From Candidatus Multivoradales bacterium (GTDB lineage: Bacteria; Acidobacteriota; Thermoanaerobaculia; Multivoradales; J023): a stretch of DNA of 64,000 bases. Under the pieces are notes generated by a model. It was not told where the DNA came from. It did no database searches and worked only from the letters and a program-made list of their open reading frames with translations. Positions 9,765 to 35,602 of this stretch are shown in pieces. The stretch is taken from the NCBI GenBank assembly GCA_965248925.1, contig CBDFLE010000006.1, positions 1,632,001 to 1,696,000 on the forward strand. The letters run 5' to 3'. The position numbers and the translations under genes were made by a program. How positions within the stretch are numbered: the first letter of the stretch is position 1; every line of letters begins with the position of its first letter.

Positions 9765-12643
9765 GTGCAATATCGCCCATCCAAGCCACAAGCTCCCCTG
9801 TCCGAATTCGATCGTTACTGCCTGACCTTGCGTCTGGCGGCGCCGATAGTCCTGCCCTTTGAGCATGGCGGCGTGCTGCGTGGCTTGCTGTCGCGGGCGC
9901 TGAGCCAGCACCAACTGCCGGACGGACTGATCCTCTTTGCCGCCGAGTCGGGGCGGGTTCACTTCCGCGCCGGCGATCGCTATCGCTGGGTGGTCACTCT
10001 GGTGGGCGAGGCCCGTGGCCAGGCGGAGACACTGCTGGCGGGTATCGCCGCGGTGGGTGGCCGGGTCGACAAGGGGCCGGCACCGGTCTTGGGTGGTAAT
10101 TTCGTGCTCGAGGCCACCGACTTGCTGCCCGCCGTCGATCTCGACGCCGAGTTGGCCCAGCTCGGCGAGCGAGACGAGATCGTGCTGCTGCTGCGCTCGC
10201 CCCTCTGCCTGCCGCGGCCAAAGACTCCCCAGGGCGCACGAGGCGGCATCTTCGACCAACACTGCTTCCCGGCCGCGGCTTTCTTGGATCGACTTTGGCG
10301 CCGCCGCTTCTTCCTCCAGCACAGCCGCTATCCGCGGCCCGAAGAGCGGTCGACCCGGGCCGCGGTAGGAGAGGGTGCGACGGCCCGACCCCACCACTTG
10401 CTGGCGGTTGATCTGCCGGTTCGGGGCACCGGTGAGCACAAGCCTTCTTACAACCTTGCAGGGGTGCGCGGCCAAGTGGTCTTCGGCGGGCTGAGCGAGG
10501 AAGAGCGCTCAGGCCTGGTCGCCGGGATGTTCCTGCACCTCGGCAAGAGCGTTAACTTTGGCTTTGGCCGCTACACCCTCGAGGGCACCCTCGACCATGG
10601 CGACAAGCATTTTCTACCCAGCACCTCGCTGCTGGCTCACGCCGCCGACTCGGAGGTGCTCGAGGACGCCGTCGCCCATCTGCGCCAGAACCTGAAAACC
10701 AAGCATCAGCTGCCGGGCGATGAGGATGAGCCGATCCCCGGCCGGCTGATCGTCGATCTCTCGCGGCGGCTGCTCGACGGCAGCTACCAGCCCGGCCTGC
10801 TCAGCGGCTTCGTGCTGCCCAAGAAGGACGGCGGCGTGCGCCCTCTGGCGGTCCCCAGCGTGCGCGACCGGGTGGCGCAGCGGGCGGCGATCGAGGTCCT
10901 GGCACCGATCATCGATGGTTTGCTCGAGGATTCCTCCTTCGGCTACCGCCGGGGGTTTTCGCGGCAGGGCGCGGCGCGGGCCATAGAACGGGCCTATGCC
11001 GAGGGCTACCGCTATGTCCTCGACGCGGACATCCACGCCTTCTTCGATCAGGTCGATTGGTCGCTGCTCTTCGCCAAGCTCGAAGCGCTCTTCCCCCAGG
11101 AGCCGCTGGTGGAGCTGCTGCGGCAGTGGATCCAAGCGCCGGTGATCTTCGAGGGTCGGCGCATTCGCCGGCAACGGGGCCTGCCCCAAGGCAGCCCCAT
11201 CTCCCCTCTGCTGGCCAATCTCTATCTTGACCAGCTCGACGAGGCGTTGATCGACCAGGGCTTCAGGCTGGTGCGTTTTGCCGACGATTTCGTCGTCTTG
11301 ACCAAGGATCTCGACCGGGCACGAGCCGCCAAGCTCGCCACCGAGCGGGTGCTGCGAGAGCTGCGCCTGTCGCTCAACCAAGACGAGACCGCCATTCGTG
11401 CCATCGACGACGGCTTCAGCTACCTCGGCTATCTCTTCGTCCGCTCGATGGTGATCGAGAAACGCTCATCGTCGAGTGCCGACGGTTCGGCAGCTGAAGT
11501 GTCCCTCGACGCTGACGACGTGCCGGCTGGATCGTGGCTTGCCGGGGTGTCCCTGCGACGAATCGAGGAGCTGCTCTCCGGGCGTCGCGGGCCCAAGTCG
11601 GTGGCCGGGTTCGAACGAGTTCCTCTGGCCACCGGCGCCGCCCTCGACGCCGGCCGTTGGCCCCTCTATGTGGTGGGGCATGACACCCGCTTGTTCTTGC
11701 GGCGACGAACCGTGGTGCTGAAGCGCCCGGAACAGGAGCCCGCCGAGCTACCCATCGAGGCGCTTTCCCACGTCGTCTTTTGGGGCCGGGTGCGGGCGAC
11801 GGTACCCGTCTTGCGCGGCCTCGCACGGGCCGGTGTGCCGGCCTACTTCTGCCAGGTCGACGGCACCCTCGAAGCGGTCTTTGGTCCCTATGAAGAAAAG
11901 TGGCCGAATTGGCTGGCGCAGGCCCGCGCCGCCGACAACCCGGAGCTCTGCCTGCGTTTTGCCATGGCCACCATCGAAGCGCGGTTGCGCAACTTGCGGT
12001 CATGGCGGTGCGCTTTGGCTGGGGCGGCGGTTCGGCGCTCGCCGCTCAGCTGCGCCAGCTGGCGCGGGAAACTGTCAACAAGCAAAGCCTCGACTCGGTC
12101 CGTGGCCTTGAGGGTCGCGGCATGGCTTTGGTATTTGGAGCATTGGCGGATGCGCTCGACTCCGAGTGGGGTTTCACCGGTCGTCACCGCCGACCGCCGC
12201 CGGATCCGGTCAACGCGATGCTCTCCTTCGGCTACAGCTTGCTTTACAACCACACTGCCACGGCCTTGACCGAGGCTGGCCTCAGTCCGCGGATCGGCTT
12301 GATGCACGAACCCCGCGGCGCCCATCTCGCCTTGGCATCCGATCTGATGGAAGAAGTCCGCCACCTGGTCGAGTCGTTGGTCTGGACATTGATCCGCCGC
12401 CGGCAGGTCAAGCCGACAGATTTTCGCCCGTCGGCAGATGGCTACTACCCGGCGCTGCTGACCCAGGAGGCGCGGCGGATGTTTCTCGACGCCTTCGAGC
12501 GCCGGATGCTGACCCAGCTGACCCCGGAAAAGGGCGAAGAACCGATCAGCTACCGCCAGCTGCTGGTGCGCCAAGCCAGGCAGGTCAGGGAGCTGGTGAG
12601 CGGGCGTCAAGACAGCTATCATCCTCTGGTGATCCGTGGCTAG
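9765..12643 (+). CDS. cas1: Cas6-reverse transcriptase-Cas1 fusion, interrupted by a 1-bp frameshift near 11991-11996
   Basis: Cas6 G-loop HLGKSVNFGFGRY; RT motifs PKKDGGVRPLAVPSVRDRVAQ, DADIHAFFD, GLPQGSPISPLLANLYL, RFADDF; Cas1 motifs split across frames: PIEALSHVVFWG, then RGLEG, FTGRHRRPPPDPVNAMLSFGYSLL, GLMH, LASDLMEE. Confidence 0.92.
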
Positions 12644-12974
12644 GAGGCAGAATCTTGGCTGCCGCGGGCGAGTTGTCAAGGGTAGAGCAAGGCGTCTGGC
12701 TAACGCTACGGTGTTTCCGGGGATCTCGAGGGAGAATCTGCCAAACTGGCACACGTAAGGCTTAAAGCTCTTGAAACAAACAACTTAGATGGGTCGAGGG
12801 GAGAAAGATCAGACCGAGATCCCCTGAGAGACGATAAAATCAATGATATCAATGGGATACAAGACTTCGGAAAACACGAAACCGGCACAATCGAGGGTCC
12901 AGCGCCGCATTTTGACGAGATCCCCTGAGAGCCGCCTGCAAGTCCTTTGCTTTCAAGGGCCTGGAAAGGGTAGA
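12644..12974 (+). promoter_or_regulatory. CRISPR leader region
   Basis: Non-coding, more AT-rich 330 bp between cas1 and the first intact repeat; degenerate repeats lie at the opposite end. Confidence 0.7.
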
Positions 12975-14840
12975 GTGGGAATCGACCTAGCCGCTCAAGG
13001 CATTGCGACCATAAATATTCGGACAGGATACACCAAGACATTTTGTGAGTGTGGGAATCGACCTAGCCGCTCAAGGCATTGCGACTTTCTGCCCCCTCGT
13101 GTCGTTATAGTCGGCGATGCCCACAGTGGGAATCGACCTAGCCGCTCAAGGCATTGCGACTTTCAACGCACGAACCATCTGATCAATGACCCAATCGTGG
13201 GAATCGACCTAGCCGCTCAAGGCATTGCGACTTCGCAAACGTTGTAGAAAAAAGTATGAGCAAGCTCGTGTGGGAATCGACCTAGCCGCTCAAGGCATTG
13301 CGACCTTTCATCCGAAAAGTTCTCAGTGTTCAGTAGGACGTCGCGTGGGAATCGACCTAGCCGCTCAAGGCATTGCGACTTCATTAAAATTTGGGTCAGT
13401 CGCTGTTCTGTACCAGTGGGAATCGACCTAGCCGCTCAAGGCACTGCGACTTTCACCAAGCGTGACGAGCCCGACAACCATGAGAACAAGTGGGAATCGA
13501 CCTAGCCGCTCAAGGCATTGCGACTTTCTAGAATTGGTTGAGAAAACTCTAGTGCAACTCTAAGGTGGGAATCGACCTAGCCGCTCAAGGCATTGCGACA
13601 CACGATACCGTACATTACCAGAAACCACGACAGTTTGTCGGTGGGAATCGACCTAGCCGCTCAAGGCATTGCGACCTTTCTGAGACCTTGCGAAGATTAG
13701 AGAAGAGCAAAGTAGTGGGAATCGACCTAGCCGCTCAAGGCATTGCGACTTTCTGCAATAAATTGACTAATCTCCAGAGCGTCATGCAAGTGGGAATCGA
13801 CCTAGCCGCTCAAGGCATTGCGACTTCGCATCTTCCGAAACTCGCCTGGAAAGTCATGCTGCTTGTGGGAATCGACCTAGCCGCTCAAGGCATTGCGACT
13901 TCAAATATGCTGGATGGACATGTTGCCTCACAAAGAAGCTGTGGGAATCGACCTAGCCGCTCAAGGCATTGCGACTTTGAGAAACGTGGTTTTCCCATTT
14001 TTATGGAGTACGAGTGGGAATCGACCTAGCCGCTCAAGGCATTGCGACTTTGAGAAGTAGTTCAGCAAGGCACAGTAGCCGCTGTGGGAATCGACCTAGC
14101 CGCTCAAGGCATTGCGACCAAACGATAGAAGAAGGTGTGCCCGAGTTCATGAGCAACCGGTGGGAATCGACCTAGCCGCTCAAGGCATTGCGACTTCTCC
14201 ATCCACAAACCTAGCAAAGGGTGTGCGGTCGAAATGTGGGAATCGACCTAGCCGCTCAAGGCATTGCGACTTCGTAGTTGGCGCATACCAGAACCACACT
14301 GCGTTGAAGTGGGAATCGACCTAGCCGCTCAAGGCATTGCGACTTTCCATCAGGGCGTTGTTGTTACTCTGAGTCATAAGTGGGAATCGACCTAGCCGCT
14401 CAAGGCATTGCGACTTTCCGATAGTCATCATCCCGCACCAGTCCAGTTTCATCGTGGGAATCGACCTAGCCGCTCAAGGCATTGCGACTTCTATAGACTT
14501 TGTTCCACCCATGTTCGTTTCTCTCGAGTGGGAATCGACCTAGCCGCTCAAGGCATTGCGACTTTAGCAACGTAGCATCCTTGATCTTGTCGAGCGGCAG
14601 AGTGGGAATCGACCTAGCCGCTCAAGGCATTGCGACCTCAAGGTCTTCGTTGGTGACCCCTGCAATGCTCGACTCTTGTGGGAATCGACCTAGCCGCTCA
14701 AGGCATTGCGACTTCCCCTCCATATCCACGAACGACCTGTTCTTGCCGTAAGTGGGAATCGACCTAGCCGCTCAAGGCATTGCGTCACAGAGTTCGTTGG
14801 CATCGCCGTGTGAGAATCGACCTAGCCGCTCAAGGCATTG
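12975..14840 (+). CRISPR. CRISPR array: 26 repeats (35 bp, GTGGGAATCGACCTAGCCGCTCAAGGCATTGCGAC), 25 spacers; class 1, probably type III-associated
   Basis: Repeats counted at 12975, 13051 ... 14752 and 14810 (last one degenerate and truncated). Spacers 35-41 bp (last 23 bp). Short GCC/GGC stem followed by the 8-nt handle ATTGCGAC. Confidence 0.98.
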
Positions 14841-16163
14841 GATCTTCGTCTCCCTGTGTGGGTAAATAGCGCCGTGGCCGACAAATGGATATGCTTGCTG
14901 GATGCGAGACAAAGACCTGTAGGCGAAGATCTTGGGCGTCGAATCGCCGTGGCGAGTCACAGAAGTAGACCTGGCCTTGGATGAAGGTGAGGTTTTGGTG
15001 CACTTGGTCAACGGCGAGAAGCGCCCACCCTGTCCTGAATGCGGCAAGCCGTGCAGCGACTACGACACCCGTTCTCGTCGCTGGCGGCACCTGGATACCT
15101 GCCAGTACCGGACGGTGCTTTTGGCCCAAGTGCCTCGGATCGAGTGCCCGGATCATGGTGTGCTCCAGGTCCGTGTCCCGTGGAGTGAGCCCGGCTCTCG
15201 CTTTACGGCGCTGTTCGAGGCGCTGGTGATCGATTGGCTCCAGGAAGCAAGCGTCTCGGCCGTCGCTCGGCTGGTGGGCCTGGACTGGGGCGAAGTGGAT
15301 CGAATTATGGCCCGATCCGTGGCCAGGGGTCTGGCTCTGCGAGAGCGCAAGCTCCCTCAGCGTCTCGGTGTGGATGAGACCTCGTTCCAGAAGCGCCACG
15401 AATACGTGACCGTGGTCTGTGACTAGCAGAGAGGTGTCGTTGTGCATGTAGCCGACGGTCGGGGCCGAGACTGCCTCGACGATTTCTACAAGGGATTCGA
15501 AGAGAAAGAAAGGAAAGCTGTCGAGTCTGTGTCTATGGACATGTGGCCAGCGTACATCGGCTCGACCGAGCAGTACATTCCCGGTGCCGAGACGAAGATC
15601 GCCTTCGACAAGTTCCATGTAGCCCAGCACCTGTCCAAAGCCGTGGACAAGATTCGCCGACAGGAGAACAAGATCCTCGTCAGCCAAGGTGATGAGTTCC
15701 TGAAAGGCAGCAAGTACCTCTGGCTCCAGAACCCTGACAACATGAGCGATGAGCGCTGGGCGGGCTTTGAGGAACTGCGGGAAAGTAGCCTCAAGACCGC
15801 CCGCGCATGGGCGATCAAAGAACTCGCCATGAGTCTGTGGTACTACGCATACCGGGGCAGTGCTCGCAAAGCCTGGAACAAGTGGTACTCCTGGGCGATC
15901 CGTTCCCAGCTCGAGCCCATCAAGAAGGTTGCGAGGATGGTCAAACGCCACCTGGAGGGTATCCTCACCGCCATCGTGCGCGGCGTCACCAATGCTCGCT
16001 CCGAAGGCATCAACGCGAAGATCCAATGGGTCAAGTACACAGCCAGGGGATGCCGCAACCGGGAGCGCTTCCGCAACGCGATCTACTTCCATCTTGGTGG
16101 TCTTGATCTTTACCCTGAAAGCATCAGGCGGTGATTGCTACCCACACAAAGTATTGTAGCGCC
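14840..16163 (+). mobile_element. ISL3-family insertion sequence
   Basis: Imperfect 25-bp terminal IRs (GGATCTTCGTCTCCCTGTGTGGGTA / revcomp GGCGCTACAATACTTTGTGTGGGTA); no target duplication seen. Confidence 0.85.
14902..16134 (+). pseudogene. ISL3 transposase with two in-frame TAG stops (14920, 15424)
   Basis: MRDKDL*AKILG; CPECG zinc finger, RRWRHLD, LGVDETSF, VSMDMW, FDKFHV, TNARSEGIN, all in one frame. Confidence 0.88.
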
Positions 16164-16170
16164 GTCTGAT

Positions 16171-16551
16171 TCAATCCGCTGGCAACTGGTCAAGAGGAAC
16201 TCTCTTAGACAAAAGCTCGCCCGCCTCTATGGACCCTTTCTTGGTGAGATTGAGCCAGCAAATATCGCCGAGATCCGGCCCCTTGGGCAAGGCCAGCCAC
16301 TCACTTTCAATCTGCTGAAGGGCTTGGTCAACAGGAATCTTCCAGGCTGTGAATCCTGTCTCTGTAACCATCCCGACATCCATCAAGTCTCGCCCGAGTA
16401 GCTCCCGAAGAACCCGGAGTGAGAGATCACGAACTTCGGCTTCACTCGTTGCACCACCGACCGAGCGTGCTACCCAAGCAACTTCCGTAGCATCGACCCA
16501 ATCGTCCAAACCACGTCGCAGAAGCTCTTCGACAAGATTGTGCAGGCTCAT
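16171..16551 (-). CDS. Putative cognate immunity protein of the RHS toxin
   Basis: 126-aa ORF overlapping the RHS stop (ATGA), same lower-GC composition as the toxin tip. Confidence 0.65.
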   Translation of the reverse strand: MSLHNLVEELLRRGLDDWVDATEVAWVARSVGGATSEAEVRDLSLRVLRELLGRDLMDVGMVTETGFTAWKIPVDQALQQIESEWLALPKGPDLGDICWLNLTKKGSIEAGELLSKRVPLDQLPAD

Positions 16552-19500
16552 TGCTGTACATGCACCTTGCGCCTGGCTCCACTAGGCAGCTTGATGTCGA
16601 TGGTTGGCCCTCCAGACTTCGAGCCAGTGCGCAAGCCTACCGTCGTACCGTCGGGCAGTTTGACTAGCTTACCTGGATACCTTGTGGCGTCGACTGGTGT
16701 GCCGCCGCGGCTTAAGCGACCAAATATGCCCCCTAAATCATCAGCCGACTCGACTACTTTGACGCTAGAACTGCTCCCAGCTCGCAAGCCGGAAAGAGCG
16801 TCGCCAACAGCCTCCGCTCCCCTCCTTGCCTGTGCCGCTTGACGCAGCTTTTTGATTCTCTTCGCTCTCTTGACAGCTTTTGTGAGCTTCACCCCTTTGC
16901 TAACAACCTTGAAAAGCCCCACACCTGTGGCACCTGTCGCCGCCCCAGTGAGAAAAGCTGTGCCTACGCCCGTGGTTAGATCATCGCCCGCTATCGCGTT
17001 AATCGCAACTTGAAAACCGACATCTACGACTCCACCAAGAAACGCGGTTACCAGAAAGGCAAGTCTTCCGTCCGGGTCTACCTGGTTGATTGGACTGTTG
17101 CTGACGTAAGAGAAACGATTCCAACTCTGGGGTGAGGACCGGCTGCCCAGAGATGGATCGACACTCAAGAACCGCCCCACCACCGGATTGCAATGCCGAG
17201 CATGCATGTAGTCCAGCTCGCTCCTCACCCCGGTCCCGGTCTTGTCCCGCTCATGACCGGTAAACTTCAGCAGAATCTCATCTGCCCCCGCGCTGGTCGC
17301 CTCCTGACCAAAGGGGTAGTAGTTGTGCAACGCCACCTGCTGACCGCCACGAGTGATCTGCCGGGGCGTACCCAAATGATCAAGATGCAGATGCGAGGTC
17401 ATCTCGCCGCCGCTACCATCGGGCTCGATGGTGGCCAGCGGCTGGCCACCTCGATGGACGTAATCCCGGCTCCAGCTGAAAGCGCCGCCAGCCGGCTGAT
17501 CGTAGATTCGCAGGACTTCGTTCCCGAGCCCACGCAGGGTCCAGGTGAGACTGGCGGGCTGGGTGGTGCAAGTGCTGGTGGCGCCGGGGCCGAAGCAGTC
17601 GAAGGTGAGGATCCGCTCGTCGCTGGCGTTGTAGATGAAGACCCGCGCTTGATCGGTGTTTGAGCGCAGGTGCTTCATCATGTTGGCGCCATCGAAGGCG
17701 TAGTCGAAGCTCTCGCTGCCGAGGGTGATGTCGGTCAGATTGCCGGCAGCGTCGTACTGAGCGCCTGAGAGGCCGAGGCGGTTGGTGGTGGTGCTGGGGT
17801 TGAGGTTGAGAGCCACGAAACCGGGTGTCGACAACTGCTGGATGTTGCCGAAATTGTCATAAGTCGCCGTCTGGGTGAACCGGGTGGCACCAACGGAGGT
17901 CTGGCCGGAGCGTAATCGGCCGAGGCGGTCATAACGGTAGTCCAGGTTGCCGATGGCGGAGATATTGCCGGCTCCGTCGTAGGCGAAAATGCCGCTGCTC
18001 CAGCCCGCGGAGGTGGTCAGCTGATGCGGCCTGGCGAGGCCGTTGGAGCTGCTGACTTCCTGGGTGTCAACCACGCCATCGCCGTGGGTGAGCTGATGCA
18101 GCATGCCACCGCTCTGGTAGGTGAGGTTGTTGGCGAAGCCGGGCACGGACCTCAGCATACCCTTCTCGTAGTTGAAATTCACCGTGCGCTGCGGATCGTT
18201 GGTGGCGCAGCCGCCGTCGGCGTGTTGGCAGCTGGGGTAGTCGAGTTGCGACAAATTGCCCTGGGTGTCATAGACGAAACCGGTGGTGAAGGCGTAGTTG
18301 CCGGCGAAGAATTGGTAGCGGGTCTGCTTCTCCGACATCAGCCCCTGACGACCGGTGTAGCGGAAGCTCTCGGAGAGCTTGACGTCGAGGAAGCCGGGCT
18401 CGGGGGCCAGGGGATTCTGGATGTCGACCCAGTTGTGGCGCACGGTCTGCACCAGCTTGCCGGCCCGGTGGTCGCTGCCAGAGTTGGCGCGGGCGTAGCG
18501 GAACTGCTTCTGCAGACGCGGGGTGCTCCCCGCGCCATTGCTCGATTCGAGGACTCTGATCAGTCGGCCGGCGGCGTCGAAATCGAAGCTCAGATCGAAG
18601 GCGGTGCTGCCGATCAGATCTTTGGAGGTGGCGTTGCCGCCGGCGTCATAGCGGTAATCGATGCGGCCATTGCCCGAGGGGCCGATCTCGGGATGGGTCT
18701 CGGAGAGTAGGAAGCCGCGACCGTCATAGTCGAACAAGCGGGTCTGGCCGCAGGTCGAGCCGGCGAGGTTCTGGCACACTTTGGTCAGTCTGCCACCATC
18801 GTCATATGAGTAGCGAGTCAGCAGACCGCCACCGCCACAGCTCCCTGACCAGGGGGCGGAACTGCCCTCGCAGACCTCGGCCAGACGGCCCTGGCCGTCC
18901 ATGATCTCGGTGACGTAGGTGTCTTGCTGGCCACTGGTCAGCTGCACTTTGAAGCGCCGGGTCTGCACCCGGTCGCCTTGGTAGGTGAAGAAGGTCGCCG
19001 GCTGTTCTGGCGGCTTGACCCGGCCGGGGCGGCCGAAGCGATCGTAGGCGATGTAGGTCGTGCGCCGGCTCTCGCCGGCCGCGGAGGCGGTGGTCCACAC
19101 CGACTCGTCCGTCTTCCAGTGACGGGGGTTCCAGGTTGTGTAGCGATGCCAGAGCTCGGTCTGGCCAGCGTTGGCGACGGGGATGCGCACGGTCTGTTGC
19201 AGCCGCCGGCCGAGGCCGTCGTAGCGGTGCTCGCGGAAGCTCATCAGATCGGTGCCGCTGCAGGAGGTCTGGAAGGGCTGGCACTGTTGCTCGGTGAGCT
19301 TGGGCGCAAGACTGGGGTTGGCGGTGGTGGGCAGGGTGTAGGTCCACTGGGTCCAGCCCAGCTCGGCCGGGCGCTGGCCGGTCAAGCGGCCCAAGCGATC
19401 GTAAGTGAAGCTGGTGCCCAGGCCCGCCGCGTCGCGGCTGGTGGCCACCAGGCCGGTGTCTGAGTCGATGTCGTAGTCGGCCAGGGTGAGTATCGCGGTG

Positions 19501-21554
19501 CCGGTGCAGTCCACCGCCGTCGACTTGCGCAGGCTGCCGCTGGCGTAGACGTGGTCGGTGCGGTAGGTCGGGCCGGACAAGCCGAGGCTGCACAAGGAGC
19601 CGGTGCCGAGGTTCTGGGTGTCGCCGCCATAAATCCGCTGGCGGGTGACGAAGCCGTTGGTCGAAGTGAGGAGGCTCACCACATCGCGGCTCTGACGGCT
19701 GCTGCCAGCCAGCTGGCGGCGGCGTTCGAGAAAGCCGGTGGTGCTACTGAAGCAGAACTCGGCCTTTTCTGTGGTTCCGCCTTCGCTCACCGACTGCTCG
19801 TCCCAGGTCTCCAGGATCCAGCGTGCGTTGTGGCTTGGCAGCACGAAATCGGTTGCCGGATCGATCGAGCTGTCGTCGGGGTTGGCGATGATGTAGGTGC
19901 CGCTGTTGGCGTTGTAGGTGGTGCTGCTGGTGCGCACGTCGGCGGCGCCGAAGCTGCCGCCGGTGGTCATGGTGCGGAAGTGGCCCAGGCCATCGAAGTC
20001 CGAGAAGGTGACTTCGCGGAACTTGCCGCCGTCGTCGTGGAAGGTCTCCTTGCGGTAGCGCAAGCGGTGGGCCTTCTCGTTGTAGTTGCCGGCGTCGCGG
20101 CCATCGCTGTCGAACTCAACGAAGATCGAGCGGAGCTTGGTTCCGCCAGCGTTGAAGAGTTCTTGGGAAAGGAAGGGGCCGGCTTCTGAGAAGCTGCCAC
20201 TGATGGGATCGCAGTAGGTGTAGGGCAGGCCGTAGGACCAGCGATTGTTGGCGCCGACGGTGGAGAAATAGCTCACCGTTTCGAAGCCCAGCGGATCAGT
20301 CACTTTCATCGAGTGGAAGCAGGGGTGGCCCAGCGGATCGCCGGGGGCTTGCGGGTTTGCGGTGTCGTAGCTGTAGTTCCAGGTGGCGTAGGGGGTGGTG
20401 TCGCCGTCGTCGAGGAAGAGATGTTTGCTCTTGACTCCCCGCGCCACCGTGCCCCAGTCAGGAGCATGGAAGAGGTCGGCCAGCTGGGTTTGGAAGGGGA
20501 AGAGCTGGTAGTCGTAGCCGTAGGCGCCACCGGTGGGCAGGCGCAGTTTCGACAGGCCACCGGAGAGCAGGTTGTCGACGGTCAGGTAGTCCATCTCGTA
20601 GAACGAACCGTCGGGCAACACCACCCGGTCGAGCACCTGGGTGGTGAGGGTGTGCTCGGCTATCGGCACGCAGCCGGGACGGAAGCCGAACTGCCGTTCG
20701 AGGGTCTCGGTGCGGTACTGAAAGAGGAAGGTCGAGTTGCTTTGGCTGCCGAAGGCTTCGAGCCTCACCGTAGCGACTCTGCCACCGACAAAATCCACCG
20801 TGTGAGTGCGCCCTTGGCTGTCGGTCAATGTCCAGTCGCCATCGTTGGCATAGCGCACATTGATCCAATTGCCGAAGCGATCCTCCATCCGCGTCAGGCG
20901 CCAAATGTCCCTTACGGTAGCGTAGTTATGAAATTCATGCAGCTCGCCGCCAGGAAATTCTATGGTGAAGCAGCTCTGATCGACAAACGTACCAGCGGGC
21001 AGCTCGCACACTCCCGGATTGCGTCGGCGGAGGCGCAAATAGGTACTGTCGTTGGTGAACCAGGTGCTGGGCTGCGGGGTCGCTGGAAAGCCACCGGGGT
21101 GTAGCTCGGTGTAAAACCTGTGCTCGCCGCCGCTTGGATCGACGTAAATCTCAGGCGTTGTCGTCGGACTGTTACGCGGCGCGATCAGCTCTCCGAGGCT
21201 GACTCGCCAGCCGAAGCCTGCCCGGGTCTGGAGATCCTGGATCGGCAGACTGTAGGTGCGCAGCATGAACGGTGGGTTGATGTCCTGGCATTGGTGGTTC
21301 TCGTCGTACTCCCAGCCGCCAGAGCTGTACGAGGCGGTCAAGCTGAAGCTCAGGGACGGGCCGACGGGGTAGGTGATTCCGATCGGCAGAGATACGGTAA
21401 GGCTGCCGTTGAAAAGGTTGATTTGATCCAGGTCGCTGATCTGGTAGGCGGTGTCGGCGGTCACTCCGCGCTGGTGGCTCGGGGGGAGTTGCGCGGTCAG
21501 CGGCAGGGCGATGCAGAGGCCGAGAAGGATGAGGGTGAGAGGTCTAATTCGCAT
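16548..21554 (-). CDS. Secreted RHS/YD-repeat polymorphic toxin
   Basis: Signal peptide; many YDxxGRL repeats; RHS core HLDHLGTPR, YYPFG, FTGHERD, GRFLSVDP, PINQVDPDGR; basic C-terminal domain. Confidence 0.92.
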   Translation of the reverse strand: MRIRPLTLILLGLCIALPLTAQLPPSHQRGVTADTAYQISDLDQINLFNGSLTVSLPIGITYPVGPSLSFSLTASYSSGGWEYDENHQCQDINPPFMLRTYSLPIQDLQTRAGFGWRVSLGELIAPRNSPTTTPEIYVDPSGGEHRFYTELHPGGFPATPQPSTWFTNDSTYLRLRRRNPGVCELPAGTFVDQSCFTIEFPGGELHEFHNYATVRDIWRLTRMEDRFGNWINVRYANDGDWTLTDSQGRTHTVDFVGGRVATVRLEAFGSQSNSTFLFQYRTETLERQFGFRPGCVPIAEHTLTTQVLDRVVLPDGSFYEMDYLTVDNLLSGGLSKLRLPTGGAYGYDYQLFPFQTQLADLFHAPDWGTVARGVKSKHLFLDDGDTTPYATWNYSYDTANPQAPGDPLGHPCFHSMKVTDPLGFETVSYFSTVGANNRWSYGLPYTYCDPISGSFSEAGPFLSQELFNAGGTKLRSIFVEFDSDGRDAGNYNEKAHRLRYRKETFHDDGGKFREVTFSDFDGLGHFRTMTTGGSFGAADVRTSSTTYNANSGTYIIANPDDSSIDPATDFVLPSHNARWILETWDEQSVSEGGTTEKAEFCFSSTTGFLERRRQLAGSSRQSRDVVSLLTSTNGFVTRQRIYGGDTQNLGTGSLCSLGLSGPTYRTDHVYASGSLRKSTAVDCTGTAILTLADYDIDSDTGLVATSRDAAGLGTSFTYDRLGRLTGQRPAELGWTQWTYTLPTTANPSLAPKLTEQQCQPFQTSCSGTDLMSFREHRYDGLGRRLQQTVRIPVANAGQTELWHRYTTWNPRHWKTDESVWTTASAAGESRRTTYIAYDRFGRPGRVKPPEQPATFFTYQGDRVQTRRFKVQLTSGQQDTYVTEIMDGQGRLAEVCEGSSAPWSGSCGGGGLLTRYSYDDGGRLTKVCQNLAGSTCGQTRLFDYDGRGFLLSETHPEIGPSGNGRIDYRYDAGGNATSKDLIGSTAFDLSFDFDAAGRLIRVLESSNGAGSTPRLQKQFRYARANSGSDHRAGKLVQTVRHNWVDIQNPLAPEPGFLDVKLSESFRYTGRQGLMSEKQTRYQFFAGNYAFTTGFVYDTQGNLSQLDYPSCQHADGGCATNDPQRTVNFNYEKGMLRSVPGFANNLTYQSGGMLHQLTHGDGVVDTQEVSSSNGLARPHQLTTSAGWSSGIFAYDGAGNISAIGNLDYRYDRLGRLRSGQTSVGATRFTQTATYDNFGNIQQLSTPGFVALNLNPSTTTNRLGLSGAQYDAAGNLTDITLGSESFDYAFDGANMMKHLRSNTDQARVFIYNASDERILTFDCFGPGATSTCTTQPASLTWTLRGLGNEVLRIYDQPAGGAFSWSRDYVHRGGQPLATIEPDGSGGEMTSHLHLDHLGTPRQITRGGQQVALHNYYPFGQEATSAGADEILLKFTGHERDKTGTGVRSELDYMHARHCNPVVGRFLSVDPSLGSRSSPQSWNRFSYVSNSPINQVDPDGRLAFLVTAFLGGVVDVGFQVAINAIAGDDLTTGVGTAFLTGAATGATGVGLFKVVSKGVKLTKAVKRAKRIKKLRQAAQARRGAEAVGDALSGLRAGSSSSVKVVESADDLGGIFGRLSRGGTPVDATRYPGKLVKLPDGTTVGLRTGSKSGGPTIDIKLPSGARRKVHVQQ

Positions 21555-27718: not shown

Positions 27719-28609
27719 CTACCGCCCTGAGCGCAGACCCTGACCTAGAGCAAGGCGGAAGCCCAAGAAGTCGTAGCGGAGCGACGGGTGCCAGTAGTAG
27801 CGGTAAGCCGCACGCACGTAGCGAGCGTCGTAGTTCCACGCACCCCCGCGGATGACCCGGTTGGCGCCTTCTTCAGGGCCAGTTGGGTTTCTCTGCTCAA
27901 CCGACTCGTAGCCGCCATACCAGTCGTGGCACCATTCCCAGACATTGCCAAGCGTGTCGTAGAGCCCCCAGGGGTTAGCCTCCTTCTCAGCCACCAGCCG
28001 AGTCCCCGCCCGGTGGTGGGGATGTTGCTTCTCCGGCCAGTTTGAAGAATCTTCACCCTCCGTGAGATCAAAGTCGACGCCACTGTTGCCGCCATACCAA
28101 CCGATATCATGGAGTAGCGGAGCATCGTTCGCACCGACGATTTCCAGGTCGCCGGCGTAGGTCGCGGTCTCAGTACCGGCGCGGCAAGCGTGCTCCCACT
28201 CTGCTTCGCTGGGCAAACGAAGCTCTAGTGCCGAGACTCTCCGGTTGAGAACTTGCAAGAACTCCTGGCAATCTTGCCAGCTCACCTGTTCTACCGGCCG
28301 CTGGAGCGATACAAAGCGGCTCGGATTTTCGCCGTCCATGACCGCTAGCCAAAGTGCCTGCGTACAGGGGGTGTCGGCCAGCCAGAATCCCGCGGTCAGG
28401 GTGACTCGATGCCGAATTTCGTCGTCATCGCGGCCTTGTTCCTCCTCTGGCGAGCCCATCCAGAATCTACCGGGCCGAATCCACCGTAGACGTTGCTCCA
28501 CCCCACCTATTTCAAAAACCACAAAAACCCCGTACCGATCCTCGCCCCAGGCTGTGGCCCAGCTAGGCGGGTTCCCAGAAGAGAGTGGGTGGTCCAGGAA
28601 ATCAGCCAT
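27719..28609 (-). CDS. DGR target 1: FGE-sulfatase/C-type-lectin-fold protein with C-terminal variable region
   Basis: PGRFWMGSP, TPCTQALW, PVEQVSW, RLPSEAEWEHACRAG, NPWGLYDTLGNVWEWC, RVIRGGAW...LGFRLAL. Confidence 0.92.
   Translation of the reverse strand: MADFLDHPLSSGNPPSWATAWGEDRYGVFVVFEIGGVEQRLRWIRPGRFWMGSPEEEQGRDDDEIRHRVTLTAGFWLADTPCTQALWLAVMDGENPSRFVSLQRPVEQVSWQDCQEFLQVLNRRVSALELRLPSEAEWEHACRAGTETATYAGDLEIVGANDAPLLHDIGWYGGNSGVDFDLTEGEDSSNWPEKQHPHHRAGTRLVAEKEANPWGLYDTLGNVWEWCHDWYGGYESVEQRNPTGPEEGANRVIRGGAWNYDARYVRAAYRYYWHPSLRYDFLGFRLALGQGLRSGR
27745..27870 (-). repeat. DGR variable region VR1
   Basis: 126-bp copy of TR with 11 mismatches, all at TR adenines. Confidence 0.95.
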
Positions 28610-28771
28610 GGAATTGGGGATCAAGAATCAGCCGCCGGTGAGCTTTCGCGGCTGCTGCTGCTGCCCTACTAACACACCGGCGGCCGTCACCATGTTTGCT
28701 GCCCACATAGCAAGGGTAAGCAGACTGGACGGCGGCCTGGTCAGTGGCGGGCACTGCGGCCCGCGTCTGCG

Positions 28772-28897
28772 CTAGAGCAAGGCGGAAGCCCAAGTTGTCG
28801 TTGCGGTTCGACGGGTGCCTGTAGTTGCGGTAAGCCGCACGCACGTTGCGTGCGTTGTTGTTCCACGCACCCCCGCGGATGACCCGGTTGGCGCCTT
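28772..28897 (-). ncRNA. DGR template repeat (TR)
   Basis: AAC-rich invariant copy (TGG AAC AAC AAC GCA CGC AAC...TCG AAC CGC AAC GAC AAC TTG GGC TTC CGC) just downstream of the RT. Confidence 0.95.
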
Positions 28898-28929
28898 TTT
28901 GGCCGCGCCCGAGTTGGCAATCATATCGC

Positions 28930-29961
28930 CTAGGCATCAATGCTACCTCGCTGGACGAGTTCTTCGCGGCGCCAGGCTCGCGCCTCGGCATGCGCAGTCA
29001 CGGCATAGACAGAGGCATAGCCGGCCTGCAACTGCTGACCGTCGATCAGACCGGCAAGATAAGCGGTCTCGAAACGTCGCCTGGCAGTGGCATAGCGCCG
29101 CCGACGGCGGCGGGATAGCAGCAGCCGGTCGCCGAAGATCCGAAAGCCGAGCAGCGGCAGACCGCGGCAGCTTGGTTGGACCTGCCAGTGTGGCTTGATC
29201 GTCAGGTGCAGAGCCTGATCTGCATGTGCCACGGCCTGCTGAGCCGCCGCCCGCACAACGGCTGGGCTGTTCCCCCAGATCGCCACATCGTCCATGTATC
29301 GCACCATCGCAACACCTTGCCCCTCCAACAGAAGGCGATCGAGGCTTGCCAAGTAGAGGTTGGCGAAGTGCTGCGAAGTCAGCGCGCCGATGGGCAACCC
29401 TCGAAGCCCTTCTCTGGATCCTTGGTCAGTCGCCGGAGATAGATAGCTGGCGATGATCCGGTCGATCAAGTGCAGCGTTGCCGCACCCTTGATACGCCGC
29501 CTGAGCTGGGAGCGCAAGATAGCATGATCGATACTGGCAAAGTAGGCTCGCACGTCGAGCTTGACGAACCAACCATAGCGAGCCGTATGACACTGCGCCC
29601 GCTTTACAGCTGCCAGCGTACCCTTGCCCAGCCGGCAGGCAAATGTATCGTCCACCAGCAGTCGTTCGAGTACCGGGCCTACCCGGGCCATGAGCGCATG
29701 GTGAAGCACTCGCTCGCGAAAACAAGGCGCCTGGATAACTCGCCGCTTGGGATCATGAATGGTGAACGAACGCCTCGATCCGACCCGGACCCGTTGCTCT
29801 AGTATTTCGCGCCCGAGACGTGCCAGCTCTGACAGAAGATTCGCCTCGAAGGCCCGAACCTCCGGCTGCTGGCGCTTGCCCTTGGCGGCACGCCAAAACG
29901 CTGCACCGAGGTGTTCTAGCGAGGCAACATCCTCTAGTTGCACCAGCGCCCGCTTAGTCAT
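28930..29961 (-). CDS. DGR reverse transcriptase
   Basis: HDPKRRVIQAPCFRERVLHHAL, KLDVRAYFASIDH, GLPIGALTSQHFANLYL, RYMDD. Confidence 0.95.
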   Translation of the reverse strand: MTKRALVQLEDVASLEHLGAAFWRAAKGKRQQPEVRAFEANLLSELARLGREILEQRVRVGSRRSFTIHDPKRRVIQAPCFRERVLHHALMARVGPVLERLLVDDTFACRLGKGTLAAVKRAQCHTARYGWFVKLDVRAYFASIDHAILRSQLRRRIKGAATLHLIDRIIASYLSPATDQGSREGLRGLPIGALTSQHFANLYLASLDRLLLEGQGVAMVRYMDDVAIWGNSPAVVRAAAQQAVAHADQALHLTIKPHWQVQPSCRGLPLLGFRIFGDRLLLSRRRRRRYATARRRFETAYLAGLIDGQQLQAGYASVYAVTAHAEARAWRREELVQRGSIDA

Positions 29962-30430
29962 GCCGCCCCTCCTGGTCCGCGGCTGAATTCCAGGCGGCAC
30001 GCAGAGCCTCCACGAACGCGGCACCGTATTTCTCAGCCCGTTTGGCGCCCACTCCTGCCAATGCTTCCAGCTCACTGGGGGTCTGCATTCGCTGGCGCAC
30101 CATGGCAGCCAACTGCGCATTAGTGAAGACAGAATAGGGTGGTACGCCGTCTCGCTGCGCAAGCTCCTTACGGAGCTTTCTCAGCTCGGCAAAGACAGTG
30201 AAATCTGCGCTCGACAACACTTCTCTATAGTCGATCTTCCCTTTTCTGATCGCCGGAATTGCTGCTGAACTCTCCTGATAATTGATGCATAACGCCCAGA
30301 AAGCAGCCCCATCGCCCACTACTAGATGGCGCTTGACCGACAGCACCCGATGGCTGCCGAGAAAGGCATTCAGCTCCGCCTCGGCGGTATCGGGAGCGAG
30401 CGCCGGCACCCCGAAGAATTTCATCTTCAT
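29954..30430 (-). CDS. HRDC-domain DGR accessory protein
   Basis: AELNAFLGSHRVLSV; LRKLRKELAQRDGVPPYSVFTNAQL...GVGAKRAEKYG; sits between target 2 and the RT, where Avd usually lies. Confidence 0.88.
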   Translation of the reverse strand: MKMKFFGVPALAPDTAEAELNAFLGSHRVLSVKRHLVVGDGAAFWALCINYQESSAAIPAIRKGKIDYREVLSSADFTVFAELRKLRKELAQRDGVPPYSVFTNAQLAAMVRQRMQTPSELEALAGVGAKRAEKYGAAFVEALRAAWNSAADQEGRHD

Positions 30431-33081
30431 TTTTCCGCGGCCTCCGGCCGCGAAGGGTCGCGAAACGTACTCGCCCCTGGAATCTCTGCATCCGGAGGGC
30501 GCTCCGCGCCCGCGGGCTCCGCCCGCTCTGCTTGCGGCTCCGCCGCCTTGAGCGCACCCTGACCTAGAGCAAGGCGGAAGCCCAAGTAGCCGCTGCGGAG
30601 CGACGGGAGCCTGAAGCGGCGGTAAGCCGCACGCACGCCGCGTGCGAAGTCGTACCACGCACCCCCGCGGATGACCCGGCCGGCGCCTTCTCGTGGAACT
30701 CCGTAGCTAGCGCTCCAATGATCCTGACACCACTCTTCGACATTCCCTAACATGTCGAACAGTCCCCAGGGATTCGGAGGCTTCTCAGCAACTGGATGGG
30801 TCTCTCCCCCGCTATTGTGGTGGTACCAGGCGACTTTCTCGATTTCTGGTGCTCTACCTTCCTCATCGATTGTCAGCCCACCCTGGTAGGTTGCCGTCTC
30901 GGTGCCCGCGCGACAGGCGTACTCCCACTCGACTTCCAGAGGAAAGCGACATTCGAGGCCGGGATTCTGTTCGTGCAGCGTCTTGAAGAAGCTGTCGCAA
31001 TCTTCCCAGCTGATCTTCTCTACGGGGCGGTCGTCCGCGGGGAAGTTGCTTGGATTGTTGCCCATAACAACTTGCCACAGACGTTGGGTGCAGGGGGTAT
31101 CGGCCAACCAGAACCCGCGCCGGATCACTTCGAGATGGCGGGGCCCCTCATCGTCCCAACGACCGGGCTCATCTTCGGGAGACCCCATCCAATAGCGCCC
31201 TGGCGGAATCCAGCGCAGGCGTTGACTGACTCCCTTGACTTCGAATGAAGCCCACAGACCGAAGCGATCCCGGCCCATGGCACTCGCCCAAGGGGGACGG
31301 GTGACCTGGTGGAGGGTGGCCTCGGTGCGATCGGTGCGGAGGATCACAGCCGGTGCCGAAGGCAGAAGAATCTCAGTGGACTCTGAGAGCAGCACCGGCA
31401 CCGGTACGGCCTCGGGCTCGGCGCCCCCGACCACGCGGTCGACACTGTCAACCGCCGTCAAGAAGCTGCCAGGGGGAACCGTTCTGAGAGCCGGCGCAAA
31501 GCGAATCGACTGACAGTAGTGAAAGACCTGCCAGCGTTGCAGGCGACCCTGAGAATCACTAGGAGGAATCCGATCCGAACCTTCAGAAGTCGAGGCTTCG
31601 GCATCCCCCGTCGCCCTCCAGGCACGCCAGAGGTAGGGACGTAGCGATTCGTTCTGCCACAGGGAACTCGGATGCCGGTCGCGGAGCGCCCGGCCGGCGA
31701 AAGCACCTACCGCGTCGACTACCTCTTCGTCGGTGGCCCCGCCACCGTCGACGGTCTCAGCCACCCGGCGCCACAGCAAGTGGGCAGCACCGATCTCCGC
31801 CTCGCTGAGGGTGCCTGGCGGCAGCTCGGCTTCGCTGTCGAAGGCCAGGACCTCATCGAGCCAAATCTCCTTGGCCTTGCCTGCCCGCCACGCCCGCATA
31901 GTCTGCACCACGGCTGTCTTGAGGCGCGGCGCCAGGCGGCGAAACTTCTGCTGTAGCCGGGTTCTGAGCGGCCGCGCGAGGTCTGCTGAATCGGCCAGCC
32001 CTGGGTAGACTTCAGGATGCATCCACACATCGCCCTCGACTCCGAGGTCGCTGCTGGGTAGAAGCAGTCGCAGTGCCCGCAGCAACCCCGGCTCGATGTT
32101 GGAAGCAAAGGCCAGCAAGGTCAGCAAGTCCTCTGCACGCTGCTCGCGCAGGTCGGGGTTTTCGCTTTCGACCCGCCGCGAAGCAGCGGACGGGCGCGCC
32201 CAATCCACCGGCTGCCAGACCGCCATCGCCTTGAAGTCCCAGCGGCGTGCGGGACAGGGGACCAGGGCGGTACAGCGCACGCCGCGCCGCGCCAGGCGAT
32301 GGCCAATCGCCGCCCACTCGCCACGTTGCCGGGCGCCAGCCAAGCAGCCGAGGTCACCCAGCACCAGGAGTGGCACTCCGGCCAAGGCCGGCGGCCTGGC
32401 ACTGCGTTCTTCACCCCACTGCCAAGGCCGCTGCTCGTCTTCGTAGAAAACAACCTGCTCAATCCGCCGCCGGCCAAGCAGCGCTCGCAGCATCCTCAGC
32501 ACGCGATCCTGATCCTCCCAAAAAGGCAGTAAGCGGAGGCTGCGGTCGACCATCAGCATAACTCTGGGGGACCAGGCGCGCAGAGTGCGGTAAGGCAGGC
32601 GGTCGGGAAGCCCACCCCGGCTGGTGTGCTCGATGTAGGCGTCGACATCCAGCTCGCGACTGACCAGAGTGGTGGCGAGCGCGCGTTGCAAGCGCGGCCA
32701 CAGGCGGGCATCCGAGACGATCGGCGGAGCGGCTGGTGCCTCGCCCTGCCTGCGGCCCAGGCCCTCCCAACCGATCGGCTCTGCCTGCGCGCGGGGCTCG
32801 GCTTCGTCACTCGGATCGAGATCTCGGTAGGCGATCGATTCGAGTCGCCAGAAGGGGATCGCGGCAAGTGGCAGCTTCGCTGTGGACTCGTCAAGCTCTG
32901 GACGTTGCGAAAAATCTTGGCGAGCGGCGGACAGGCGATCCGGCAGATCAGCGTCGGCCGCAAACGTGACCGCGCGCCCGTAGCCAAGTCGCTTTGCCAT
33001 CATACTGAGGGCTTCATCGCCCTGCGCGTGGAAAGCTCTGAGTAGATCAGCCCGGCCGGTCCCGGCCGCCGGTATCGTCAT
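30427..33081 (-). CDS. DGR target 2: degenerate vWA-like N-terminus plus C-terminal FGE/CLec domain with VR
   Basis: ELDVDA...MLMVDRSLRLLPFWEDQ and LLVLGDLGCL (vWA-like); C-terminal FGE motifs PGRYWMGSP, NPWGLFDMLGNVEEWC, RVIRGGAW. Confidence 0.88.
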   Translation of the reverse strand: MTIPAAGTGRADLLRAFHAQGDEALSMMAKRLGYGRAVTFAADADLPDRLSAARQDFSQRPELDESTAKLPLAAIPFWRLESIAYRDLDPSDEAEPRAQAEPIGWEGLGRRQGEAPAAPPIVSDARLWPRLQRALATTLVSRELDVDAYIEHTSRGGLPDRLPYRTLRAWSPRVMLMVDRSLRLLPFWEDQDRVLRMLRALLGRRRIEQVVFYEDEQRPWQWGEERSARPPALAGVPLLVLGDLGCLAGARQRGEWAAIGHRLARRGVRCTALVPCPARRWDFKAMAVWQPVDWARPSAASRRVESENPDLREQRAEDLLTLLAFASNIEPGLLRALRLLLPSSDLGVEGDVWMHPEVYPGLADSADLARPLRTRLQQKFRRLAPRLKTAVVQTMRAWRAGKAKEIWLDEVLAFDSEAELPPGTLSEAEIGAAHLLWRRVAETVDGGGATDEEVVDAVGAFAGRALRDRHPSSLWQNESLRPYLWRAWRATGDAEASTSEGSDRIPPSDSQGRLQRWQVFHYCQSIRFAPALRTVPPGSFLTAVDSVDRVVGGAEPEAVPVPVLLSESTEILLPSAPAVILRTDRTEATLHQVTRPPWASAMGRDRFGLWASFEVKGVSQRLRWIPPGRYWMGSPEDEPGRWDDEGPRHLEVIRRGFWLADTPCTQRLWQVVMGNNPSNFPADDRPVEKISWEDCDSFFKTLHEQNPGLECRFPLEVEWEYACRAGTETATYQGGLTIDEEGRAPEIEKVAWYHHNSGGETHPVAEKPPNPWGLFDMLGNVEEWCQDHWSASYGVPREGAGRVIRGGAWYDFARGVRAAYRRFRLPSLRSGYLGFRLALGQGALKAAEPQAERAEPAGAERPPDAEIPGASTFRDPSRPEAAEK
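30564..30689 (-). repeat. DGR variable region VR2
   Basis: 126-bp copy of TR with 17 mismatches, all at TR adenines. Confidence 0.95.
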
Positions 33082-33112
33082 CGGCGAACCAAGCCGAGGA
33101 CCTCTCCCCGCC

Positions 33113-34081
33113 CTACCACCCGACTTCCTCATCCGGGTGCTTACGCAGGGCAAATGCCCTGATCTTGCCTAATGCCAGCTTCTGTGCCGCTGCGTCTCCC
33201 GCCCACCGGCTGGCGACCACTCGCAAGAGATCCAGATACTCAGCGCCTCCCGGTGGGCAAAGCCCGCGGCCCTCTACTGCCTCGCGGTCGTCAGCCACCA
33301 TCTCCGCAGCGCTCTGCAACACCTCTTCTGCGAGGTCACCAAAATGCGCCCGGCCACGGGCGACAAGACGCTCGATGAGTTCGAACCGCTTCTTGGGCCA
33401 CCTGAGCTGCAGCACCAGGCAGCGGCGGATGAAGGCATCGGGTAGGGTACGCTCCTCGTTGGTGGTGACCACCACCAACGGCGCCAGCGCCTCTACTGGC
33501 CTTGAGACCACCCTGCCATCCGGTAGCCGAAACTGGCCTTGTCCCAGGGCCTCCAGCAGGCCATTGGGCACCGCCGGATCGGCTTTGTCGATCTCGTCGA
33601 CCAACAGCACAGCACCATCGGCCCCCGTCCAACCTTCAGGAGTCCAGGGTTCGAGCCCACCGCCAAGGGTGGCCTGCTCCTTGGCACCCTCCCAGTCGAA
33701 AACCCACCACAAGGGACCTGGGGTGGTGAACCGCTTGGGGTCGAGCTGCGCCCGCGCCTCTTGCACCTCTCCCAGGTGGCTGATGATCTGCGCTTCGGCG
33801 AGCCTGGCCACCGCGTCGACGGAGTAGAGCAGATCGCGAGACTCAGTCCGCGCATCGACGGTGAAAGGGAGGAATGCCCGACCGAGCATTGCCGCGGCGG
33901 CGCGGGCCAGCTGGCTCTTGCCGACTCCCGGCTCGCCGCGCACCAAGAGCGGCCGCTGACAAGCCAAGGCCGCGTTGACAGCCTCGACCTGATCCGCCTC
34001 AAAGACATGCGCGGTCTGCGGCCAAGTATCGTAGGCGGCGATGGTCTCGGTGTGGGGTGGCTCGCATTCGAGATACTTCAC
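33113..34081 (-). CDS. MoxR-family AAA+ ATPase
   Basis: RPLLVRGEPGVGKSQLA, VLLVDEIDKAD, VVVTTNEERTLPDAFIRRC. Confidence 0.93.
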   Translation of the reverse strand: MKYLECEPPHTETIAAYDTWPQTAHVFEADQVEAVNAALACQRPLLVRGEPGVGKSQLARAAAAMLGRAFLPFTVDARTESRDLLYSVDAVARLAEAQIISHLGEVQEARAQLDPKRFTTPGPLWWVFDWEGAKEQATLGGGLEPWTPEGWTGADGAVLLVDEIDKADPAVPNGLLEALGQGQFRLPDGRVVSRPVEALAPLVVVTTNEERTLPDAFIRRCLVLQLRWPKKRFELIERLVARGRAHFGDLAEEVLQSAAEMVADDREAVEGRGLCPPGGAEYLDLLRVVASRWAGDAAAQKLALGKIRAFALRKHPDEEVGW

Positions 34082-35568: not shown

Positions 35569-35602
35569 CGCAGAACCGGCGTCGCCCTGCTGCACCGGCA
35601 CC

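Follow-up and report, generated by a model that had tools for sequence, protein, structure and literature searches.

A stand-alone Cas6-RT-Cas1 gene with a split Cas1 domain and an adjoining CRISPR array in a genome that carries two distant type III loci

The fusion gene, its frameshift and the array

The window analysed here is a 64-kb stretch of the genome of Candidatus Multivoradales bacterium (C6:1632001-1696000; C5 and C6 are contigs of this genome, which comprises 8.0 Mb in 6 contigs with 62% G+C). It carries a gene that fuses a Cas6-like part, a reverse transcriptase (RT) and Cas1, followed by a leader-like stretch and a CRISPR array. The initial annotation had described a single three-domain gene of about 959 aa, if repaired, leading straight into a leader and a homogeneous 26-repeat array, and Pfam, the comparison with homologues and repeat parsing all agreed with this description. 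The features, in window coordinates and all on the forward strand, are as follows.

9765-12643 (+): Cas6-RT-Cas1 gene, read-through span, 959 aa with the frame repaired
9765-11993 (+): in-frame N-terminal 743 codons of the gene, recognised by Pfam, the match to 7kft and invariant columns
About aa 1-290 of the fusion (+): Cas6-like domain
10818-11432 (+): RT domain with FADD motif, aa 352-556, by RVT_1
Aa 634-743 of the fusion (+): N-terminal part of the Cas1 domain, by the Cas_Cas1 profile
11991-11996 (+): frameshift site within the Cas1 domain; the 3' part is read in the -1/+2 frame
11996-12643 (+): C-terminal catalytic part of the Cas1 domain in the other frame, with no stop before 12641-12643
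12644-12974 (+): leader-like spacer of 331 bp without cas2, delimited from the sequence itself
12975-14844 (+): CRISPR array of 26 repeats of 35 nt and 25 spacers, repeat end ATTGCGAC
13010-14751 (+): the 24 full-length spacers, 35-41 nt

The open reading frame (ORF) at 9765-12269 (+) matched the Pfam family RVT_1 over aa 352-556 (E 9.4e-34, 117 bits) and covered positions 1-114 of the 283 in the Cas_Cas1 profile (E 5.5e-14). A second frame, at 11900-12643, covered positions 132-282 of the same profile (E 1.6e-48). The RT is of the group II intron-like type, with its YADD-type active site present as FADD. The best solved relative was the Cas6-RT-Cas1 protein of PDB 7kft, whose chain residues 284-772 aligned with query residues 251-746 (E 7.6e-63), a match that begins only at residue 251; group II intron RTs were the next-best solved structures. 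Residues 51-239 of the second frame aligned with chain residues 791-975 (E 2.2e-24), collinear with the first half. The C-terminal Cas1 frame also holds the stretches GLEGRG and HEPRGAH..ASDLMEE, which we take to be the carriers of the Cas1 catalytic residues. Proteins of this kind, about 950 aa long, form a family with at least 547 members at E<=1e-30 among the 8000 candidates scored. Among the matches listed, full-length homologues spanned 96-100% of the query and mostly carried PF10040, and the nearest relatives, P0005 and P0006 (58% and 56% identical), lay on short contigs. Residues 5-743 of the fusion aligned at 42% with the genome's own paralogues, and the columns invariant in 28 homologues were retained in the window gene, frameshift aside. 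With 66-69% G+C the gene exceeds its flanks (about 60%), a difference that is not decisive as an island mark.

The Cas1 domain does not lie intact in one frame; its profile is split over two (positions 1-114 and 132-282). The break was placed by three-frame translation against homologues, which gave in-frame ...IEARLRN, one broken codon and then AVMAVRFGW.... Past the break the out-of-register frame stops at 12269 and ends an 834-aa product. None of the homologous genes in the surveyed loci was split at this site, which contains neither a homopolymer run nor a slippery heptamer. Single-base indels are common in few-contig assemblies, and an artefact, in which either the frameshift or the gene-array join would be erroneous, was therefore considered. 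Over 9765-13003, Logan contigs from 4 runs (word depths 4.5 to 23.8) match the window without a gap or a differing letter; the four sets, each assembled on its own, are thus identical from upstream of the gene through the leader into the first repeat. No RNA run was listed among those that contain the locus. The 4 runs come from one sample of one study and may be the assembly's own source, which makes the agreement independent of the assembler and not of the sample. These short-read contigs do not span the array but end inside it, and its downstream junction is known from the main assembly only. Given the identical Logan contigs, the two collinear halves of one Cas1 domain and a break site that is not a homopolymer, we regard the chance of an artefact as close to negligible. 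We take the frameshift for a true mutation that looks like a one-base deletion. It is probably recent, since the rest of the gene appears intact: the invariant columns are retained and both Cas1 halves score well.

The array, with a repeat of the family type, lies downstream of the leader. Of the 26 repeats, 23 are identical, two carry 1 mismatch each and the last one carries 4. Both of the leader-distal repeats have degenerated, as expected with the leader on the cas side, and the 25th and most leader-distal spacer is only 23 nt long. The full-length spacers have 45% G+C compared to 62% in the genome. In the whole 8.0-Mb genome the repeat gave 25 matches at <=3 mismatches, all within the window array, and therefore no second array with this repeat was found in the genome; the repeat was also absent from 400 other genomes of the class. 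Its 3' part, AAGGCATTGCGAC, is common to the arrays of two homologous loci (L038 and L046), and the repeat folds only weakly. The leader did not resemble those of relatives or paralogues. A direct repeat of 16 nt, CGAGATCCCCTGAGAG, lies in it at 12815-12830 and again at 12916-12931, 101 nt apart.

Cas2 and type III effectors in the window and the genome

The absence of cas2 and of interference genes from the window, as given in the initial annotation, held up in every search. A six-frame search of the whole genome with PF09827 (E<=1) gave four matches, none of them in the window, and PF09707 gave zero matches in the whole genome. A 68-position family Cas2 model, made from the genome's Cas2 and the cas2 genes of relatives, reached a best E of 1.3 in the window. 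A Cas2 search of 12500-13000 in six frames, with stops read as X, returned negative scores and no remnant. A first self-built Cas2 model had matched the window (E 8.4e-29), in a shadow frame over the Cas1 C-terminus; this match came from stop-to-stop ORFs in the model and was gone once the model had been rebuilt from trimmed domains. RAMP and Cas10 models matched solely at C6:289-296 kb and C6:4126-4133 kb and not in the window. Among the 38 window ORFs scanned, Pfam found no cas family besides the two frames of the fusion, and jackhmmer with ten type III proteins of the same genome found nothing in the window. The fusion gene thus has no cas2 next to it, and with neither Cas10 nor Cas7/Cas5-type RAMP genes the window locus is not a complete type III locus. 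A separation of the locus from its partners by rearrangement, which the initial annotation had offered as one explanation, left no positive sign: neither a transposase nor a transfer RNA (tRNA) gene as an island mark nor a cas2 remnant was seen near the locus.

Besides the window, the genome contains four other cas1 genes, four cas2 genes and several further arrays. Cas10 and RAMP matches are confined to two loci, both distant from the window on the same contig.

C5:1.99-2.01 Mb: Cas1, Cas2 and three arrays (94, 14 and 14 seed-word copies), repeat end GTGGATTGAAAC
C6:284-312 kb: III-D-like locus with two modules of Cas6-RT-Cas1, cas2 and array, 1.33 Mb from the window
C6:4.118-4.134 Mb: III-B (Cmr) locus with Cmr2, RAMPs, a stand-alone Cas6, a separate RT, Cas1, Cas2 and a 25-repeat array, 2.47 Mb from the window

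The first of these is presumably type I-C-like. In the second, duplicated modules flank a III-D-like operon with Csx7 (153 bits, above the cut-off), Csx10-like and other RAMP genes and a weak Cas10 match. Each Cas6-RT-Cas1 gene of these modules is followed by cas2 and an array; the two genes are intact and share 99.6% identity, and 42-44% with the window gene. At the III-B locus, Cmr2 scored 135.8 bits combined and the stand-alone Cas6 66 bits. The stretch between the duplicated III-D-like modules (L020:1557-4613, C6:296.5-299.6 kb) also encodes a nucleotidyltransferase resembling those of cyclic oligonucleotide-based antiphage signalling systems (CBASS; 109 bits, under the cut-off), as well as a SAVED-domain protein, part of which is HetF/CHAT-like.

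In the orientation of their cas genes, the repeats end in ATTGAGAC at the III-D-like locus, in ATTAAGAC at the III-B locus (19 of 24 repeats) and in ATTGCGAC in the window. The alternative III-D-like tag CCGGCGAC was discarded as a reading of the opposite strand. Compared to the window array, the 8-nt tag of the III-D-like locus differs by 1 base and that of the III-B locus by 2, and hence the genome holds effectors that might accept CRISPR RNAs (crRNAs) from the window. The III-B and the III-D-like complexes are candidate users of the crRNAs of the window array.

The window locus has all three domains of the fusion with Cas1 split and neither cas2 nor effectors close by, and the genome has two complete type III loci at other sites, each with RT-linked adaptation genes and a cas2 of its own. 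An RT-cas1 gene with an array but without effectors, in a genome with type III effectors elsewhere, is thus what we find. Collectively, these results suggest that the locus is probably an orphaned and recently disabled Cas6-RT-Cas1 adaptation-and-processing module with the array that it built, and that its Cas6 part may feed type III complexes in trans. The spacers would have been acquired earlier by the usual Cas6-RT-Cas1/Cas2 integrase; their lengths of 35-41 nt fit a ruler-type Cas1-Cas2 integrase, as in the solved complex. Cas2 would either once have been encoded in cis and then deleted, or have been borrowed from a paralogous locus. The cas1 frameshift would have come later than this loss or borrowing, and acquisition would now be off. 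The 834-aa product would retain the Cas6 and RT domains and could cleave the transcript of the array 8 nt ahead of each spacer. Such a cut would yield AUUGCGAC-tagged crRNAs, which the III-B (Cmr) or III-D-like complexes could load for transcription-dependent interference. Both steps, the processing of crRNAs by the truncated protein and their use in trans, are predictions from sequence.

Several observations weigh against this account. The Cas6-like part matched CRISPR_Cas6 (PF10040) only weakly, at 20.1 and 22.9 bits and thus under the 25-bit cut-off. No trace of a deleted cas2 is left to support a loss in cis. A simple scan found no sigma-70-like promoter in the leader, and 23 identical repeats could equally fit a young array that died whole. 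A harsher reading takes the locus for a wholly dead relic, its array neither processed nor used and the whole heading for deletion. The frameshifted cas1 without a cas2, the lack of a promoter-like site, the degenerate terminal repeats with the shortened last spacer and the decay seen in related loci (below) all agree with such a relic. However, the 2.9-kb gene bears a single visible lesion, upstream of which the Cas6 and RT parts stay open, 23 of the 26 repeats have remained identical and the genome encodes type III effectors whose tags are nearly the same. We consider a dead relic somewhat unlikely.

The remaining neighbours of the locus contain a second RT. Two SPFH/Band_7 genes lie upstream of the fusion gene. 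Downstream of the array, on the reverse strand at 14830-21554, follow a 420-aa ORF without a family match, sharing about 15 nt with the last degenerate repeat, and then an RHS-repeat protein of 1668 aa. A row of genes 14 kb from the array (27719-35643, reverse strand) encodes 301-aa and 908-aa FGE-sulfatase-domain proteins, a MoxR-type AAA_5 ATPase, a trypsin-like protease and a stand-alone RT of 410 aa (28930-30162; PADLOC 'RT', E 5.6e-40, and also UG17-like). This row may be a defence-type RT system.

Homologous loci and the Cas2-less state

We surveyed 26 full-length-type loci of the best 80 from genome contigs (L035-L060) and 20 of the best 80 from metagenome contigs (L115-L134) with homologues of the window gene. 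Five of them (L053, L120, L123, L129 and L132) were cut by a contig end at or in the gene, and 41 were evaluable for cas2 (25 of the 26 from genomes and 16 of the 20 from metagenomes); since L133 duplicates L059, 40 of these are distinct. The statement in the initial annotation that such fusions normally sit beside cas2 agrees well with these loci: cas2 lay directly downstream in 37 of the 41, and in one more (L057) it lay upstream, behind a separate cas1-like gene. Type III effector genes were present in 14 of the 19 loci whose flank reached at least 8 kb on one side. They were not found in L036, L052, L053, L054 and L058 with seeds of our own, which distant forms may escape. The initial annotation had named two findings that would tell against its reading: close homologues all with adjacent cas2 and type III operons, in a genome that carries these genes elsewhere, or a misassembled locus. 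The first is largely what we observed, and the second is contradicted by the agreement of the Logan contigs.

Three loci from metagenome-assembled genomes (L040, L049 and L054) add to the observations that tell against an orphaned and disabled module. In each, the Cas6-RT-Cas1 gene is intact and an array begins about 260-360 bp behind it, without any cas2 in the locus; cas2 is present in these genomes on other contigs or far away. Given three intact Cas2-less loci, a working arrangement with Cas2 supplied in trans is conceivable for the family.

These loci could indicate that the window locus, too, is a working module without a cas2 of its own, which either acquires spacers independently of Cas2 or takes Cas2 from the III-D or III-B loci, with the frameshift bypassed, for example by separate translation of the catalytic Cas1 domain from the ATG at 12002. 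The genome has four cas2 genes, the array is homogeneous and this ATG lies just past the break in the right frame. However, the DNA consensus itself carries the frameshift, a slippery site is absent and 12002 is not preceded by an evident ribosome-binding site. The break is not shared by any homologue surveyed, and the Cas2-less state is sporadic on the tree of the proteins. In addition, the solved relative is built around a Cas2 dimer, and the Vibrio vulnificus system is described as needing both of its Cas2 proteins. A working module of this kind is very unlikely.

The protein tree had 43 rows; L060, L123, L125, L126, L129 and L132 were left out for having fewer than 850 model positions. With the window counted in, five rows lack Cas2; they require five changes on this tree, all of them forced by its starred branches. 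L044, the sister of L049, has cas2. The window gene was placed, with weak support (86), beside the clade of L040, the genome's own paralogue and L042/L025. Five separate changes suggest that the loss of cas2 is sporadic and not a lineage trait. Signs of decay were found at further loci. In L051 cas2 is shortened to 30 of the 68 model positions and abuts the array, L060 is split by an internal stop, L126 has no Cas1 part and in L054 a stray C-terminal piece of Cas1 lies between two arrays.

Two parts of the initial proposal, a single-gene module that acquires and processes for effectors in trans, can therefore be separated. The module does stand alone and its use in trans is plausible. Working acquisition independent of Cas2 does not agree with the frameshifted Cas1, the homologues with cas2, the scattered Cas2-less loci and the published relatives that need Cas2.

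Spacer starts and comparison with known systems

The window spacers start with TT in 18 of 24 cases, compared to an interior TT frequency of 0.071 (p = 1.7e-16), and TTC or TTTC occurs within the first 5 nt in 17 of the 24. Their far end is only mildly enriched in A, which makes up 46% of last bases compared to 27% of interior ones. In 21 other correctly oriented arrays, among them one III-D-like array of the same genome, TC lay within the first four bases of 149 of 324 spacers, compared to 23% expected (p = 1.2e-19). This pool excluded arrays whose parsed repeat did not end at the canonical GAC or AAC, or was shorter than 24 nt, which left out 9 of the 31 arrays from the fetched loci and 3 of the 4 other parsed arrays of the genome. 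The start motif, TT(T)C or (T)TCT, is one-sided. It is seen in the arrays of L036, L037, L042, L047, L125 and C6:310.4-311.8 kb and is strongest in L037, L042 and L047.

The window spacers themselves could not be traced. Against their own genome they gave nothing beyond seeds of 13-18 nt, and they had no match in phage or plasmid collections, in the 400 genomes of the class or in any fetched locus. In IMG/VR, the 25-nt cores of 4 of the 24 window spacers had no exact match. The likeness of spacers 8 and 11 (0.57) equals the 95th percentile of shuffled maxima and is not beyond chance. In the III-D-like array c (C6:310381-311838), spacer 10 matches its own genome at 35 of 37 bases. Its targets, C6:82685-82719 and C6:2525918-2525952, lie in a 1.5-kb element of which there are three copies, the third at C6:79963-81422 with about 89% identity. 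The target contains the leading TTC of the spacer. Positions 16 and 36 are mismatched, which leaves the spacer with a final AA opposite GA in the target. By codon-position G+C, spacer and target gene share a strand, so that the crRNA of spacer 10 would be sense and harmless.

RT-linked type III adaptation systems are, to our knowledge, held to have no protospacer adjacent motif (PAM). The start motif may possibly be the complement of short purine tails on 3' ends, by analogy with the Marinomonas RT-Cas1, and it may equally be a templated, PAM-like mark of selection. Spacer 10, a single spacer of a paralogous array, gives a hint in favour of the templated reading. A broader proposition joins two of the ideas above: that a Cas2-less Cas6-RT-Cas1 gene with an array is a recurrent working arrangement that borrows a co-resident Cas2, with the window locus active until its recent frameshift, and that the one-sided spacer start is a templated PAM-like mark of the choice and orientation of prespacers. 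It is unlikely that both parts hold.

Had the locus been what was first posed, a single gene capturing spacers without Cas2, it would have been of use for RNA recording. Its features fit better with an ordinary course of events for CRISPR modules in multi-system genomes, in which an adaptation module loses cas2 and then cas1, and in which the array and the Cas6 of the decayed module may persist via shared effectors. The loci L040, L049 and L054 would be better test cases for the sharing of Cas2 in trans. If the start motif is templated, it would be a PAM-like rule in a type of system thought to have none.

Among known systems, the Vibrio vulnificus RT-Cas1 fusion is reportedly without a Cas6 domain, and earlier work is said to give the Cas6 domain of the Marinomonas protein a role in crRNA processing. 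The window fusion resembles the Vibrio vulnificus III-D system in the link of RT-Cas1 to type III and in sequence biases at spacer ends; it differs in its Cas6-like part, in having no adjacent cas2 and in a bias that is one-sided. In Vibrio vulnificus, both Cas2A and Cas2B were required for acquisition, the AT-rich bias was symmetric at both spacer ends, antisense orientation was preferred and no PAM was seen (Gonzalez-Delgado et al. 2019, PMC6821258). With Marinomonas the window locus shares an RT-linked adaptation module of the type III kind. In the Marinomonas mediterranea type III-B system, spacers enter in either orientation with non-coded, mostly A junction bases, RT-Cas1 adds short purine tails to 3' ends and a mutant is written Cas6-RTdelta-Cas1 (Mohr et al. 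2024, PMC11014452). In contrast, the window bias is one-sided, with TT(T)C at the leader-proximal end, and TTC was templated in the sole traceable case.

The Cas6-RT-Cas1-Cas2 integrase of Thiomicrospira (PDB 7KFT/7KFU) is described as a heterohexamer around a Cas2 dimer, whose Cas2 core is called critical both to full-site integration and to the ruler that sets spacer length (Wang et al. 2021, PMC8102632). The window gene has the same three-domain order, adjoins its array and finds in this complex the best solved match to both of its halves. In contrast to the Thiomicrospira integrase, it lacks an adjacent cas2 and its Cas1 domain is frameshifted. A Cas2-free integrase would be new, but the present data do not support one.

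The reading of such a locus as a stand-alone module with use in trans is already in print. Roughly half the RT-cas loci were reported to be without effector genes, often with an array, and the RT adaptation module was described as an autonomous unit that can serve type III in trans (Silas et al. 2017, PMC5513706). Table 1 of Toro et al. (2017) likewise gives a partial or unknown effector complex for 41 of 110 RT records. A loss of cas2, as in the window locus, is not mentioned for the modules of Silas et al. (2017, PMC5513706), in whose main text the word 'cas2' occurs 0 times. Like those modules, the window locus consists of RT-cas genes and an array, with no effectors nearby and with type III systems in the same genome.

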